Shown piece after piece: positions 40,566 to 64,000 of a stretch of DNA of 64,000 nucleotides. Under the pieces are notes generated by a model. It did no database searches and was not told the origin of the DNA. It saw nothing but the letters and a program-made list of their open reading frames with translations. Origin of the DNA: Escherichia coli (GTDB lineage: Bacteria; Pseudomonadota; Gammaproteobacteria; Enterobacterales; Enterobacteriaceae). The translations under genes were made by a program, and so were the position numbers. Numbering within the stretch: position 1 is the first letter of the stretch; each line of letters starts with the position of its first letter. The stretch is taken from assembly GCF_003991155.1 (NCBI RefSeq), contig NZ_CP031297.1; one strand, 5' to 3'.

Positions 40566-40616
40566 AGTCGCTCTGCGGCTATAGGTGAGATAGCTGGTCT
40601 CCGAAAACAAACAGCA
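40566..40616 (+). promoter_or_regulatory. Conserved leader element C, copy 1 (hairpin GAGA-TAGCTGG-TCTC + CGAAAACAAACAGCA)
   Basis: Seven related copies, each before a gene block. Confidence 0.45.
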
Positions 40617-40713
40617 TCTAGTCTTATGCCGTATGGCATTACTTAACCCCAAGCCGGGGGCTTCTCCCGGTTTTCGGGTGTTGCCCCTGTTTTTTTTACA
40701 TAGGAGCAACACC

Positions 40714-41034
40714 ATGCACATCATCACTTTCATTGTAGTTCTGCTTGCATCTCTGGGCGCACTGTACGTAGGCGCGAAGGCATTTGCTTTTTCCTTCATC
40801 GTTCTCGCTAAAGTGTTCCAGCGTATCGGTTTGTTCCTTTGGAACAAATTCGCAGTTCCTGCAATGCGGTCTGTACAGGCCGTCATCAAAGAACGTGCTG
40901 CCAAGGCTGAACAAGCCAAAGCAGTCGTTGAACCTGAGGTAACTCAAGTTCAAGAAGTCGCTAAACAAGAACCTGACTGGGATTATCTCGAAATCCCGAC
41001 TTACCTTCGTAAGGGCAAGGAACTTGTTTGGTAA
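40714..41034 (+). CDS. Small membrane protein carrying an FtsZ C-terminal-peptide-like tail (EPDWDYLEIPTYLRK)
   Basis: ATG at 40714 with AGGAG SD; N-terminal hydrophobic 35 aa; C-terminus matches the FtsZ conserved C-terminal peptide (E. coli ...EPDYLDIPAFLRKQAD, from memory). Confidence 0.75.
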   Translation: MHIITFIVVLLASLGALYVGAKAFAFSFIVLAKVFQRIGLFLWNKFAVPAMRSVQAVIKERAAKAEQAKAVVEPEVTQVQEVAKQEPDWDYLEIPTYLRKGKELVW

Positions 41035-41073
41035 TAACTGTCGCTGAGTAATCTTCGACACTTTCAAACCCAT

Positions 41074-41113
41074 CGGGGCAACCATACCCCGACGGGGATG
41101 TTGCCCCTTTTTG
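41074..41113 (+). terminator. Terminator-like hairpin (GGGGCAAC ... GTTGCCCC + TTTTT)
   Basis: GC stem + T-run after gene 40714..41034. Confidence 0.45.
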
Positions 41114-41128
41114 CTTAGGAGCAACATC

Positions 41129-41221
41129 ATGGAAATCGCTATCATCGCTTTGTGTATCCCTGCTGGTTGGGCAATCTCTCGTCCTTTCGTGAGAATCGCT
41201 GAATCGTTCGGTTACTGCTGA
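41129..41221 (+). CDS. Tiny hydrophobic peptide (30 aa)
   Basis: Same TAGGAGCAACAYCATG context as the preceding gene; MEIAIIALCIPAGWAISRPFVRIAESFGYC. Confidence 0.35.
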   Translation: MEIAIIALCIPAGWAISRPFVRIAESFGYC

Positions 41222-41337
41222 TAGTCAACGCAAAGGGAGGGGGCAACCCCTCTCTTTCTGGTCAAGCCTCTGTGGCTTGTCCTCAAAGTCTTCTGGTGTC
41301 AGTTGGCTTTGACGACAAGCTACAGGGGGAATGTCGA

Positions 41338-41523
41338 ATGCAACAGAATCTTCATGTTTACGACGATCACGCAGGCATCATCTATCTGGCTGATGGACGC
41401 GAGGTGAAATTTGATCCGAAACTGTATTCCAGCTCCTACCAGGCGCACAGTGAAGCAGTGAAGTGGGCCAAAGAAACCGGGGTCATTGGTCAAAACGACG
41501 ATGTGGTGATGTTCGTCCATTGA
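41338..41523 (+). CDS. Small hypothetical protein (61 aa)
   Basis: ATG at 41338 with AGGGGGA SD. Confidence 0.5.
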   Translation: MQQNLHVYDDHAGIIYLADGREVKFDPKLYSSSYQAHSEAVKWAKETGVIGQNDDVVMFVH

Positions 41524-41600
41524 GGGAGTAGCCTCCAGGAGAGGCTACTCTCCTCGCTCCTTAAAAGTCTTCTTACTCATGGTGAATACCATCAGTAAGC

Positions 41601-41660
41601 AGATTTTGTTCTCTTCGGAGAGCGAAAAGTGCGATAGCTGGTCGCCAAAAACAAACAGCA
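41601..41660 (+). promoter_or_regulatory. Leader element C, copy 2 (hairpin CTCTTCGGAGAG, hairpin GCGA-TAGCTGG-TCGC, CAAAAACAAACAGCA)
   Basis: Part of a 121-bp block identical to 46436..46556. Confidence 0.5.
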
Positions 41661-41742
41661 AATTAACGTTAATTTACTAGCCCAACCGGGCGCATCCGCC
41701 CGGTTCGGGACGTGGTGCGCCTGTCACAATAGGAGCGCACCT

Positions 41743-61599: not shown

Positions 61600-61657
61600 T
61601 ACTCTTTGTTCATTGTCAGCGCTTGCTGGCTATAACGGTAGCTGGCCCAAAACAGCA
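61600..61657 (+). promoter_or_regulatory. Leader element C, copy 7 (divergent)
   Basis: GGTAGCTGGCCCAAAACAGCA. Confidence 0.35.
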
Positions 61658-61720
61658 ATAACCTAACCCCTCGGGAGGAAACCCCTCCTGGGTTCTCTCC
61701 CACAAACAAAGGAGAGAAGC

Positions 61721-61924
61721 ATGAGCCTAGACAAGTTAAGTCGGCTGGTGGACCAACAACGAAAGATCCAGGATGAAATCGACAATGAAATCATTCTGGC
61801 CGTCAAAGAGGTGTTGGCTACAAACTCAGTCGGTTTAGCCCGTGAGCTTGTTGGGGGTGTCCCGCAAGATCATCCATTCCATCCGTTTTTACTCGCTATA
61901 GCTAAGCAGCTTGACCCGAGATAA
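61721..61924 (+). CDS. Small hypothetical protein (67 aa)
   Basis: AAGGAGAGAAG SD. Confidence 0.65.
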   Translation: MSLDKLSRLVDQQRKIQDEIDNEIILAVKEVLATNSVGLARELVGGVPQDHPFHPFLLAIAKQLDPR

Positions 61925-61995
61925 CTAAGTAACCCAACCGGGTACACCAAGGCCCGGTCGGCTTTGGTGTACCTCCAACCAATTTTGGAGGCACT

Positions 61996-62601
61996 ATGTC
62001 TAATTCAAATTTCGGCTTTCTAGCTCTGGCCTTGCGCCAACGCCTGATCAAACGCTGGTCACTGATGCACTCTGTTCAACCGGAGTCTGTGTTGGAACAC
62101 AGCGCTGTTGTTACCCTGCTTTCCTACCTGGCTGGCAATATTGCCATTCAGCAAGGGAAGTCGGTGGATCTGGCAGTCATGCTTGCTCATGCTTCGTTGC
62201 ATGATGCAGCCGAGGTTCTCTGTTCGGATGTTGTAACACCGGTCAAGAAAGCAAACGCTGTTTTGCAGCGTGAGTTTGAACGACTGGAAAAGGCCGCAGA
62301 GGACAAACTCATCCAGACTCTTCCCGAAGAACTCCAGGATGCAGTCGCCATAGCCTTCGCTCCCGGTGGCTATGAACAATCACTGGTTAAGGCCTGTGAT
62401 ACCTACTCCGCTTACATCAAGTGCAAACTTGAGGTGGCCGCAGGTAATGGCCTTGAGTTCCAGGATGCTCTCAGCAAAATGGAACGTGTTGTTGCTCAGG
62501 TGAAATCGGACTTCCCGGAAATCGACGCTCTGGACAAATGGTTTGGTAACGGACTCGGCCATTCAGTAGATAAACTGCTGGCAGGGGGTAACGATGACTA
62601 A
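61996..62601 (+). CDS. HD-domain 5'-deoxynucleotidase, YfbR-like
   Basis: Aligns along its length with E. coli YfbR as recalled: RWSLM...SVLEHS...SLHDAAEVL...TPVKK...LVKACDTYSAYIKC. Confidence 0.85.
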   Translation: MSNSNFGFLALALRQRLIKRWSLMHSVQPESVLEHSAVVTLLSYLAGNIAIQQGKSVDLAVMLAHASLHDAAEVLCSDVVTPVKKANAVLQREFERLEKAAEDKLIQTLPEELQDAVAIAFAPGGYEQSLVKACDTYSAYIKCKLEVAAGNGLEFQDALSKMERVVAQVKSDFPEIDALDKWFGNGLGHSVDKLLAGGNDD

Positions 62602-62863
62602 TCCAATCCCTGGCGACATCAAGATTAAGGACTTTGGCCGCGACCGGAAATTCCGTTCGGTTGATGAGCTTCAAAGCACTTTGTCAGAACAGTACAAAGG
62701 TCAGCATGTCAGCATCGTTTACCCTGCAAAGCCCAGCGGTTTACTCCGCACGGTTTTTGTCAGTGTCGATGATGCTGGTGGCGTGAATCGAACCTATGGG
62801 GACCAGTCTCCTGTCGATTTTTCTGCCATCAAAGATGACCTGTATGTACCAAGTGACCTGTAG
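62594..62863 (+). CDS. Hypothetical protein
   Basis: GGGGGTAA SD; overlaps preceding stop. Confidence 0.65.
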   Translation: MTNPIPGDIKIKDFGRDRKFRSVDELQSTLSEQYKGQHVSIVYPAKPSGLLRTVFVSVDDAGGVNRTYGDQSPVDFSAIKDDLYVPSDL

Positions 62864-62876
62864 GAGAGCACTAGCT

Positions 62877-63095
62877 ATGGTGGTGATCATCGTAAACACA
62901 GGACACTATGAGTTTATCGGCCTTGGTGAGACCCACGGACAAGCCACAGAAGGGCTTTTGAAACGCTGGGACGAACACTGCGAACGTAATCCGGATGCTG
63001 AGTCTGGTTACATGCAGGAGCTGATAGAAGAAGGAAGCGCACAAGTTGTCGAGATGGAGCCCGGCTCCGCCGTAATTTACGGACTTGACGGCTAA
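62877..63095 (+). CDS. Small hypothetical protein (72 aa)
   Basis: ATG at 62877 with AGGAGA SD. Confidence 0.5.
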   Translation: MVVIIVNTGHYEFIGLGETHGQATEGLLKRWDEHCERNPDAESGYMQELIEEGSAQVVEMEPGSAVIYGLDG

Positions 63096-63168
63096 GCCTT
63101 CTCAACTAACCCACTCGGGCGCATCATCCCGAGAGGGTGTGGTGCGTCCTAACCAAAAGGAATGCACT

Positions 63169-63726
63169 ATGTCTAACTTTGAACAAGCTCTGGAGCGTAC
63201 TGACGGTAAAACACTGATTCTCAGCAATGGGAGTAAGTGGGCAGGCCAAGACCCGGACAGTATTCAGACTTTACTGGATGTCCTGGGTGACAACGTTCTT
63301 GACCCGATGTTTGAGCAGTATCACTGTTATCGCCCATACCCGTTTGAACCAATGGTGAGGACGGGGCGAAATGGCGAAATGTTCCAGCCTTGGCTTGGGG
63401 CAGCCTGCTTCTTTGGGAACTTCCTGACTGTCTCTCATGTTTTCAACATCATCACGAAAGATGACGGTGTTGTTGAGGCCTTAACAGAGGCGATCCGGAA
63501 GAATATGGCGACTGAACAGTACCAGCAGAATGCCTATGAGCGTTATGCCGGTTGGTTCTACGCTGAAACCAGCGAAGGGTTAAGGCTAGTCTCTCCAAGT
63601 GAGGCTGCCGACATCCGAGCTGGCGCAGTTTCAAAGCTGCGTTACCCAAGAAACTTCGAGGTTATGAAAACTGCGGTTCTCAAAGGTCCTCGATTTGATA
63701 CTGAATTAAGCCGCAAGGCTTCTTAA
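63169..63726 (+). CDS. Hypothetical protein
   Basis: ATG at 63169 with AAAGGAA SD. Confidence 0.75.
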   Translation: MSNFEQALERTDGKTLILSNGSKWAGQDPDSIQTLLDVLGDNVLDPMFEQYHCYRPYPFEPMVRTGRNGEMFQPWLGAACFFGNFLTVSHVFNIITKDDGVVEALTEAIRKNMATEQYQQNAYERYAGWFYAETSEGLRLVSPSEAADIRAGAVSKLRYPRNFEVMKTAVLKGPRFDTELSRKAS

Positions 63727-63800
63727 CCCAAACATTAACCCCACGGGGGACATCGGTCCCTGAGGGGATGGTGTCTCCCTCTGAAATTAAGGAGATACCA

Positions 63801-64000
63801 ATGATTAAACAGCATTTTCAAAACGAACTGGTTAAGTGTGGATACCCGGATGATCTGACGATTGAGTACAGTCTCGGATACTGCCAGGGGGATGGCGTAG
63901 CCTTCTACGGGGATTTGAGCGTTGATGACGTCAAAGCTCTCATGAATCGCCTATTCAGCACTGAGCCCGGCCAAGTGGATGCTGTCAGCCGCGTGAAGAA
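63801..64000 (+). CDS. Hypothetical protein, 5' part (continues beyond window end)
   Basis: ATG with AAGGAG SD, preceded by the same AACCCC hairpin element. Confidence 0.6.
   Translation, partial: MIKQHFQNELVKCGYPDDLTIEYSLGYCQGDGVAFYGDLSVDDVKALMNRLFSTEPGQVDAVSRVK

Follow-up and report, generated by a model that had tools for sequence, protein, structure and literature searches.

Structured leaders open the gene blocks of an AcaCD-controlled, probable establishment and defence-evasion array on the IncC plasmid backbone

The window, a 64,000-nucleotide stretch of Escherichia coli DNA, is IncC (A/C2) plasmid backbone, with 100% identity to more than 500 sequenced IncC plasmids. A 19.4-kb query returned 836 records at 99% identity or more, of which 540 spanned at least 80% of the query, and plasmid typing placed the DNA in the IncC backbone (IncC replicon, MOBH/MPF_F). 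Gene coordinates come from RefSeq, which annotates an identical plasmid (NZ_OK067239.1; subtracting 32000 from a record position gives the window position). Only plus-strand coding sequences lie between 40714 and a point beyond 64000. There are 31 of them up to 63726, including an unannotated 33-aa ORF, and one more is cut by the window end, which bears out the roughly 30 co-oriented genes that the first-pass annotation had counted from 40.7 kb onwards. Judged by its sequence, the array is vcrx087 to about vcrx119 of pVCR94, an accessory section of the IncC backbone under AcaCD control. The hde operon and AcaCD regulon of IncC/IncA plasmids, reportedly described by Carraro 2014, Roy 2020 and Durand 2021, are this very DNA: there is no sequence difference, the gene order is identical, and the AcaCD boxes, the rptI repeats and the neighbours acaB and sfx are all shared.

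A covariance model built on the core of the repeated leader was run on the 64-kb window and on other parts of the plasmid. It found exactly seven leaders in the window, all on the plus strand, as the first-pass division into seven leader-headed blocks implied, with an eighth just beyond the window end and no further leaders in the other parts searched. The first core (rptIa, 40547–40622, 62.2 bits), reported to lie ~30 nt after the transcription start, precedes block 1 (40714–41523), which holds vcrx087, the 33-aa ORF (41120–41221) and vcrx088; the vcrx087 product is a membrane protein with an FtsZ-tail-like C-terminus. The second (rptIb, 41591–41666, 66.9 bits) belongs to a full leader that fills the gap 41524–41742 ahead of block 2 (41743–46378), where family matches recover the hde gene order of a CbbQ/CobS-like AAA+ gene (vcrx089), vcrx090, ssb, RecT-type bet and YqaJ-type exo. 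Leader 3 (core 46426–46501, also a covariance-model match) is 100% identical to leader 2 between 46436–46556 and 41601–41721; it heads block 3 (46578–50133), which encodes a DUF3150 protein, a CobT/VWA protein and a 111-aa basic protein and contains a strong terminator-like hairpin at 49753–49782. Leader 4 (rptIc, 50259–50333, 64 bits) heads block 4 (50398–54620), comprising vcrx098-099, the methylase-like vcrx100, a YfaE ferredoxin, two acidic proteins and small ORFs. In block 5 (54812–58359), behind leader 5 (54672–54747, 60.1 bits), a 541-aa Dcm cytosine methyltransferase is accompanied by two small ORFs and two unknown proteins. Block 6 (58592–61519), behind leader 6 (58454–58529, 55.1 bits), pairs a 128-aa ORF with a DndC-like PP-loop protein of 817 aa, and a terminator hairpin (61518–61552) follows it. 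Leader 7 (61595–61663, 24.8 bits) is a short variant with a 2–3 bp stem and a shorter A-rich tail; its block (61721–64000, continuing past the window end) encodes a 67-aa ORF, a YfbR 5′-deoxynucleotidase and small ORFs. Leader-bearing intergenic gaps measure 190–265 nt, against about 60–95 nt for most others.

Family searches sustained most of the gene content proposed from the bare sequence. The ssb product (TIGR00621, 169.6 bits against a cut-off of 53.95), the recT/yqaJ pair, here bet (TIGR01913, 88.8 against 76.95) and a lambda-exonuclease/YqaJ-type exo (TIGR03033, 133.8 against 68.05), the YfaE-type 2Fe-2S ferredoxin (92.7 against 75) and the dNMP nucleotidase YfbR (128.5 against 122) all exceeded their cut-offs. 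The CobS-like AAA+ ATPase (105 bits, a family-level assignment only), the CobT-like VWA protein (a Pfam match) and the DndC-like PP-loop enzyme also held up, as did the small, highly acidic proteins, for example those encoded at 52838–53227 (pI 4.1, net charge −20) and 62877–63095 (pI 4.3). Two or three DNA methyltransferases had been proposed; what stood was one Dcm cytosine methyltransferase slightly below its cut-off (TIGR00675, 94.4 bits), with a second candidate, an N6_N4 methylase/DpnI_C-like protein, matching weakly. About 15 ORFs had been described as lacking a recognisable motif, and 17 array proteins matched no NCBIfam model. When 20 of the NCBIfam-searched proteins were compared with PHROGs, matches were obtained only for the VWA and methylase-like proteins. 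The array is about 25 kb of mostly unknown genes.

Transcription of the array is controlled by AcaCD. The transfer activator gene acaB (vcrx086, 39778–40419, minus strand) is divergent from the array, and its full 213-aa product matches PDB 6n8b, 'transcription regulator AcaB' (E = 1e-135). AcaCD boxes (GCCCNDWWWGGGC) precede vcrx087 (GCCCAAAATGGAC, 40503–40515, from a motif scan), vcrx098 (ACCCGAAAAGGGC, 50152–50164, a repeat-family member that is also in Table S3 of PMC4207636) and vcrx114 (61553–61565; PMC4207636), all on the plus strand and at positions that agree with the published coordinates. AcaCD is an FlhDC-like activator that also drives the tra genes; in published work it binds all three boxes, and three AcaCD-activated promoters drive the array; ChIP-exo and 5′-RACE mapped transcription starts after the vcrx087 and vcrx114 boxes (PMC4207636). 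With an offset of 24521 between published and window coordinates, the tabulated starts fall at ~40560–40562 (vcrx087) and ~61610–61612 (vcrx114). Deletion of acaCD left array read counts near zero (1–10), against thousands with AcaCD (PMC4207636), and transcripts cross block boundaries, with RT-PCR connecting vcrx087 through to vcrx094 (PMC7498323). Matches to sigma-70-like promoters were depleted in the array (3 versus 13.7 ± 3.5 in shuffles).

The anti-defence composition claimed for the array is supported, and was already known, because published work on the hde operon shows such activities for vcrx089-090 and for Ssb/Bet/Exo (PMC7498323, PMC11602122). Once the plasmid has entered the recipient, vcrx089-090 counteract type I restriction, and their complementation works in the recipient and fails in the donor (PMC7498323); in the IncC plasmid pKAZ3, a second group measured 424- to 906-fold effects against EcoBI and EcoKI (PMC11602122). 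Ssb, Bet and Exo mend double-strand breaks made by CRISPR or restriction through RecA-independent single-strand annealing between the repeated leaders (rptI), with deletion of the intervening DNA (PMC7498323). Bet and Exo, both above curated cut-offs, thus form a pair of the Lambda Red or RecET type, although the IncC module has its own Ssb, rescues a conjugative plasmid and acts on built-in repeats. No Gam homologue was annotated or detected in the array, and remote relatives carry RecT with a RecE-type nuclease. The Dcm methyltransferases of IncC plasmids are also published as altering methylation. Annotation, family matches and published activity agree on an enrichment of anti-defence genes in one orientation.

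We consider it very probable that the array serves establishment and evasion of host defences under AcaCD control, with the leaders acting as putative cis-acting RNA modules. It is unlikely that it mainly serves the donor or the plasticity of the plasmid, by processing DNA for transfer and by recombination that rearranges plasmid sequence, with defence evasion as a side effect. Co-regulation with the tra genes in plasmid-bearing cells would fit such a role, as would the hybrid elements made by Bet/Exo of SXT/R391 elements and the deletions that annealing repeats cause. However, vcrx089-090 complementation was effective in the recipient rather than the donor, restriction sensitivity rose several hundred-fold without these genes (PMC11602122), and deletion of ssb-exo did not lower transfer to a non-targeting recipient (PMC7498323). 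Because deletions of 9–24 kb leave the plasmid transmissible, most of the array is dispensable in the laboratory (PMC7498323). IncC plasmids, whose host range is very broad, rank among the main vehicles of carbapenemase and other resistance genes, and it is established that the array contributes to this.

As the anti-defence function is already known, the new part is the structure and distribution of the leaders. All seven blocks open with such an element, conserved and structured on the sense strand. In order, the core has a variable hairpin, a covarying hairpin of 4–5 bp with an invariant UAGCUGG loop, and the tail AAACAAACAGCA; 3′ of it lie a GC-rich helix and a hairpin over the Shine-Dalgarno/ribosome-binding site. 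Internal copies add a covarying helix upstream (GCUUUCC/GGAAAGC), directly after the end hairpin of the previous block. The loop was closed by at least 4 pairs in 116 of 132 unique matches to a search pattern without a stem constraint, and this count is the only unbiased one: the alignment used for stem statistics, in which the covariation score was 0.81 versus 0.20 in shuffles, had been pre-filtered for paired stems. RNAalifold also recovered the upstream helices, in which both partners of a pair had changed many times. The excess of G-U over A-C in the stems (95 against 27) marks the sense strand as the folding strand. The tail CAGC can pair with the loop GCUG and may form a pseudoknot. Four variants keep this pairing (one by a double change, three leaving a wobble pair) and one breaks it, and covariation support is thin because two nearly invariant 4-mers carry it.

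The motif was found at more than 120 loci; it occurs in >100 loci of conjugative elements of alpha-, beta- and gammaproteobacteria, usually beside an acaB homologue. The acaB gene is its most frequent neighbour elsewhere (35 loci), and one betaproteobacterial plasmid repeats the divergent acaB-and-array layout, also with seven leaders; the more distant AcaB-carrying plasmids that we examined lacked this leader type. Two promoters of SGI1 itself are followed by copies, and the copy after P5 is the short variant seen in leader 7. The genes that leaders head are unrelated; one plasmid has a tRNA gene 300 nt downstream. Rfam 15, which includes radC, STAXI, preQ1 and the known ribozymes, gave no family that overlapped a leader: neither the gathering threshold nor a limit of E = 5 produced one in the window, and the same was true of the remote loci. 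RfaH ops/JUMPstart elements (GGCGGTAGnnTG, with an essential G directly before TAG) were likewise rejected: the leaders share TAGC only, and any of the four bases can stand 5′ of their TAG, covarying with the base opposite it in the stem. The searchable papers on the pVCR94 hde operon and AcaCD regulon treat the repeats as annealing substrates, their sole published role. One remark in them mentions a predicted fold that masks the vcrx089 ribosome-binding site, but they report neither the conserved multi-helix structure nor the wide distribution.

From these features we infer that the leaders would be cis-acting RNA modules controlling the amount of transcription or translation that reaches each block, possibly by antitermination, by RNA processing and stabilisation, or by opening of the ribosome-binding site, and that they are probably read by a hypothetical conserved trans factor. 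More broadly, and tentatively, they could be a widespread undescribed class of structured cis-regulatory RNA, defined by a hairpin or pseudoknot core with the UAGCUGG loop and AAACAAACAGCA tail and by flanking covarying helices. Such a class would stand at the head of gene blocks for establishment (ssb, recT/bet, exonuclease, primase, anti-restriction) divergent from acaB in MOBH/F-type plasmids and integrative elements of Alpha-, Beta- and Gammaproteobacteria and have been copied by SGI1, and the conserved factor would gate elongation, RNA processing or translation block by block after entry. If so, many proteobacterial conjugative elements would share the leaders as a point at which establishment is controlled. 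The leaders would also be a handle for finding establishment-gene arrays in genomes, and the class would explain why SGI1 carries them.

It is very unlikely that the leaders are instead nothing more than DNA duplications, retained as substrates for annealing or as remnants of promoters, without an RNA function. Bet/Exo demonstrably use them as repeats, and the 100% identity of two copies over 121 nt is what gene conversion predicts. However, annealing requires copy-to-copy identity, not structure, whereas the stems covary around an invariant loop and tail across alpha-, beta- and gammaproteobacterial elements, with a sense-strand G-U bias. The fixed position, either closely downstream of a transcription start or closely upstream of a ribosome-binding site, and the SGI1 copies after two of that element's own promoters also argue against it.

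Regulatory leaders of known type offer partial parallels. Antitermination leaders (HK022 put; conAn of Gram-positive conjugative elements, PMC8191782; Tn916, PMC11658703) likewise place at least two hairpins near the start of a very long operon with terminator-like hairpins downstream, and the first IncC leader, ~30 nt after the start and ahead of such hairpins, fits in position and architecture alone. Unlike them, the IncC leaders recur every 1–5 kb inside operons, and they have no sequence or Rfam relation to them. The preQ1-I type of riboswitch is a small H-type pseudoknot aptamer with an A-rich 3′ tail. In architecture only, the IncC leader could resemble it, with a possible 4–5 bp stem, a 2-nt first loop, a 4-bp loop-tail helix, an A-rich third strand and a platform hiding the ribosome-binding site, but the leaders match no Rfam riboswitch model and head unrelated genes.

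The first-pass annotation had likened the gene mix to that of leading regions and proposed locating oriT as a check; the result went against the likeness. The oriT lies immediately upstream of mobI (PMC5587640), and mobI occupies 172695–173234 of the 173,510-bp plasmid record. As the array lies at 72.6–100 kb of that record, it is ~73 kb from oriT in either direction, not among roughly the first 30 ORFs on the first-entering side, and neither transfer polarity would make it first-entering DNA. Despite the shared gene mix (ssb, methyltransferases, anti-restriction, small unknowns), uniform orientation, similar hairpin-rich repeated leaders and the action of vcrx089-090 in the recipient, it is therefore most improbable that the array is a classical leading region, the first DNA into the recipient and expressed from the incoming single strand by hairpin promoters as in F/IncI, a reading largely refuted by position. 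AcaCD-dependent expression from starts that follow AcaCD boxes also speaks against it, as do the short leader hairpins (stems of 4–6 bp, nothing resembling paired −35 and −10 elements) and their covariation as transcribed sense-strand structure, at the end of which a hairpin covers the ribosome-binding site. No feature like a single-strand promoter was seen in the array, and psiB and ardA homologues were neither annotated nor detected in it. Samuel et al. 2024 reportedly described leading regions of F, IncI and other plasmids, with ssb-psiB-ardA and single-strand promoters. Those regions likewise hold co-oriented ssb, anti-restriction genes, methyltransferases and small unknowns that act early in the recipient, but the IncC array is not beside oriT and has an activator-dependent promoter instead of a single-strand one. 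The defence-evasion array would come on after entry, when the plasmid has become double-stranded and the AcaB/AcaCD loop has been triggered, instead of being expressed from the incoming single strand. As this case shows, an array of anti-defence genes need not adjoin oriT.

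A Megablast search with window positions 40566-60000 matched 942 plasmid records, 836 of them at ≥99% identity and 918 predicted to be conjugative, from hosts including Klebsiella, Escherichia, Salmonella, Vibrio, Providencia and Aeromonas. Annotated copies of the plasmid were typed as IncC, MOBH and MPF_F; subtracting 32000 from a position in one complete record, NZ_OK067239.1, gives the window position. To the left of the array lie traI/mobH, traD, traL-A, traC and traW-U-N, and then, on the minus strand, sfx (38795-39655) and a 213-aa gene (39778-40419), the latter identified as acaB by a full-length match to the crystal structure of the transcription regulator AcaB (PDB 6n8b, E 1e-135). 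The first-pass annotation had described a uniformly oriented array with named gene families and small acidic proteins. All annotated CDS from 40714 onward were indeed on the plus strand (31 CDS up to 63726, counting one 33-aa ORF without RefSeq annotation), family profile matches bore out the named families, and several small proteins were strongly acidic, among them those at 52838-53669 and 62877-63095. No NCBIfam match was obtained for 17 array proteins, and in a PHROGs search with 20 array proteins the VWA protein and a methylase-like protein were the only ones to gain a match. An 817-aa protein contained a DndC-like region by NCBIfam and had no match in Pfam. The array corresponds to vcrx087 to about vcrx119 of pVCR94.

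The array is real and its reading as an anti-defence region is correct, and both were previously published (PMC7498323, PMC11602122). A Tn-seq screen delimited the hde operon, vcrx089-093, in which vcrx089-090 counter type I restriction and could be complemented from the recipient, not from the donor (PMC7498323). In a second laboratory, deletion of vcrx089-90 or vcrx093 from the IncC plasmid pKAZ3 raised EcoBI/EcoKI restriction several hundred-fold (PMC11602122). Plasmids cut by CRISPR-Cas3 are rescued by Ssb/Bet/Exo independently of RecA, through annealing of the repeats rptIa-f with loss of 9-24 kb of the array, and plasmids with those deletions are still transmissible (PMC7498323). The rptIa-rptIb spacing was 1042 bp from the reported deletion sizes versus 1044 bp in the window (40583 to 41627), and because of this agreement we equate the rptI repeats with the structured leaders that head the blocks of the array.

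The further suggestion that the array is a leading region, the part of a conjugative plasmid that enters first, failed by position. The record NZ_OK067239.1 is 173,510 bp long and has mobI, directly downstream of oriT, at 172695-173234, just before repA; the array occupies 72.6-100 kb of it. The array and oriT are separated by ~73 kb clockwise and ~73 kb counter-clockwise (a backbone lacking the resistance islands would shorten the latter), and the array is not among the first-entering genes under either transfer direction. NZ_OK067239.1 has another long array of small, mostly co-oriented genes at 3973-29247, which is not part of the window. It sits immediately past mobI and repA, beside oriT, and its products include a site-specific DNA methyltransferase, ParB-like and HU proteins, a thermonuclease and a toxin-antitoxin pair. 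Its position makes it a better candidate for a true leading region.

Boxes for AcaCD, the activator of the tra genes, have been located ahead of vcrx087, vcrx098 and vcrx114 by ChIP-exo, 5'-RACE and RNA-seq, with transcription starts mapped for vcrx087 and vcrx114 and read counts of 1-10 in an acaCD deletion mutant versus thousands with AcaCD supplied (PMC4207636). In the window the boxes of the array fall at 40503, 50152 and 61553, and the TAGCTGG of leaders 1 and 7 lies ~30 nt downstream of the two mapped starts. RT-PCR placed vcrx087 through vcrx094 on one transcript (PMC7498323). AcaCD-dependent transcription from three promoters, with read-through over at least two leaders, is thus established. 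Promoter matches of the sigma-70 type were scarce on both strands of 40300-60200 (3 versus 13.7 ± 3.5 in shuffles), a depletion that fits tight activator dependence. Other AcaCD box matches, at 849, 10552, 18256, 18927 and 35884 (plus strand) and 28846 (minus strand), lie ahead of tra operons, as expected of the regulon; one inside ssb (44066-44078, plus strand) is probably a chance match.

The structured, widespread leader motif looks to be the only part of this region that is undescribed and worth experiment. Repeat finding recovered a direct-repeat family at 40.58, 41.63, 46.46, 50.29, 54.71 and 58.49 kb, and a search for the core TAGCTGG added a seventh copy at 61.64 kb. A covariance model of the core matched the 64-kb window exactly seven times, always on the plus strand, in agreement with the seven leader-headed blocks proposed earlier; it also found an eighth leader just beyond the window end and none in the remaining parts of the plasmid searched. 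In every window copy a stem of 4-5 bp closes the TAGCTGG loop, and the stems differ compensatorily between copies (GAGA/TCTC, GCGA/TCGC, GAGG/CCTC, GCGG/CTGC). Among 132 unique matches to a pattern that leaves the stem free, the loop was closed by four or more consecutive pairs in 116 and by none in nine, with more than 20 distinct stems. Across 59 aligned copies, pairing at the four inner positions of the stem was 98-100%, with 8-33 double changes each, and stem covariation scored 0.81, against 0.20 for shuffles and no more than 0.25 for slid controls; this alignment was prefiltered for paired stems, and 116/132 is the unbiased figure. The leaders at 41601-41721 and 46436-46556 are 100% identical over 121 nt between unrelated flanking genes, and the eighth leader likewise has a long identical core. 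These long identical copies suggest ongoing homogenisation, perhaps through the plasmid's own Bet/Exo.

The structure extends to both sides of the core. Upstream there is always a variable hairpin (mean folding z-score −1.6), and internal leaders (41.59, 46.43, 54.67 and 58.45 kb) carry the hairpin that ends the previous block, then GCUUUCC, whose pairing with GGAAAGC encloses a small, strongly covarying hairpin; both upstream helices were recovered by RNAalifold, with double changes in 18 of the 22 predicted pairs. Downstream there is a CCC-GGGG...CCCC-GGG helix, as well as a hairpin in which the Shine-Dalgarno sequence is paired. Since G-U pairs outnumber A-C pairs across the leader helices (95 versus 27), it is the sense strand that folds, and because the upstream helices covary as RNA, the internal leaders are read from upstream rather than being promoters of their own. 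The 3' helix module (AACCC-N-GGGG...CCCC-N-GGG) also recurs in several short intergenic gaps, at 41066-41096, 44240-44270, 50965-50995, 54209-54239, 63737-63767 and others.

Within the core, GCUG in the loop and CAGC in the tail are complementary, which suggests an H-type pseudoknot whose first loop would be 2 nt long and whose third strand would be A-rich. TAGCTGG made up 123 of 125 distinct loops and both pairing 4-mers were almost invariant; the variants comprised one double compensatory change (TAGCTAG with TAGC), three with a wobble pair and one that breaks the pairing. In a short variant, seen in leader 7 and at SGI1 P5, a shorter stem accompanies a shorter A-rich strand. No antisense partner of loop or tail was seen elsewhere on the plasmid, and no Rfam 15 family overlapped any leader in the window or at remote loci. 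Three known DNA or RNA signals were considered for parts of the motif and rejected. A Chi-like GCTGG is contradicted by inspection of the copies, in which the bases 3' of it change with the stem; an RfaH ops/JUMPstart element at GGTAGC, by covariation of its key G as a stem base; and a sigma-54 or ECF-type promoter at GGAAAGC, by its pairing and covariation with the upstream GCUUUCC, which show that it is itself transcribed.

We scanned one genome per species for TAGCTGG-N7-AAANAAACAGCA with the stem unconstrained and obtained at least 120 matching stretches, where ~9 would be expected by chance, as estimated from collection size. The matches listed included many contigs with several copies and spanned Betaproteobacteria (Rhodocyclaceae, Sulfuritalea, Accumulibacter, Dechloromonas, Nitrosomonadales), Alphaproteobacteria (Rhodospirillaceae, Pseudovibrio) and Gammaproteobacteria (Photorhabdus, Vibrio, Shewanella, Citrobacter, Providencia). 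When all IncC ORFs were compared with the remote loci by tblastn, acaB was the commonest neighbour (35 loci), ahead of ssb (23), a toprim/primase-like gene (15) and bet (13); de novo clustering added RecT, a RecE-type nuclease, RadC and vcrx087 homologues. On pSTJ2, a complete betaproteobacterial plasmid, acaB is divergent from a 20-kb co-oriented array encoding a PD-(D/E)XK nuclease, RecT, SSB, toprim, ribonucleotide reductase, ArdC-like and RadC proteins. Its seven leaders all share the strand of the array, and the tra genes have none. An SGI1-type island carries two copies, at positions 1850 and 4007: a short-variant copy that closely follows a strong promoter located upstream of mpsA, and a full copy downstream of a promoter resembling that of vcrx087. 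The mpsA-proximal promoter is taken to be P5, which gives rise to the sgm-sRNA primary transcript; most transcripts from P5 reportedly stop at a GC-rich inverted repeat after 70-80 nt (PMC9299015).

We propose that after entry and second-strand synthesis an AcaB/AcaCD loop would turn on the array together with the tra genes, and that each leader would act at the RNA level to govern passage into its block. Elongation control through the terminator-like hairpins, by analogy with the put and conAn systems (PMC8191782), would be the leading possibility, ahead of processing into stable segments. Ranked third, the leader might expose an occluded ribosome-binding site, its A/C-rich tail acting as a standby site or binding Hfq; a purely translational role is argued against by pSTJ2, where the first leader after the acaB-divergent promoter precedes, by ~300 nt, a tRNA gene (19396-19467, minus strand, 70 bits) and no ORF. 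The near-invariant loop and tail over three proteobacterial classes point to a conserved, putative reader. AcaB is a candidate given its strong co-occurrence with the leader; however, no leader-like sequence lies within 0.7 kb upstream of acr1, its reported site of action, and plasmids with more distant AcaB homologues retain the divergent ssb-recT-exo array and lack the IncC leader type. One of these, NZ_CP056322.1, keeps a divergent ssb-recT-exo-MoxR-DUF3150-VWA array and has a different repeated leader (6019-6396 and 9954-10326), made of a terminator, a TTGACC-type, sigma-70-like promoter and its own conserved hairpins.

The first gene of the promoter divergent from acaB, vcrx087 (40714-41034, plus strand), encodes a 106-aa protein that has an N-terminal membrane helix and ends in QEPDWDYLEIPTYLRKGKELVW; on direct comparison this ending is close to the E. 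coli FtsZ C-terminal peptide KEPDYLDIPAFLRKQAD. A PDB search with this C-terminus, too short a query, gave no match. The motif DW..Y[DE][IV]P[AT][FY][ILM]R[KR] is retained in vcrx087 homologues of remote elements, and vcrx087 may be an FtsZ-tail mimic that targets the division machinery. Just downstream, the hydrophobic 33-aa ORF absent from the RefSeq annotation (41120-41221, plus strand) has a ribosome-binding context nearly matching that of vcrx087 (TTAGGAGCAACATCATG versus ATAGGAGCAACACCATG) and is preceded by a GC hairpin and T-run of the same type as that before vcrx087.
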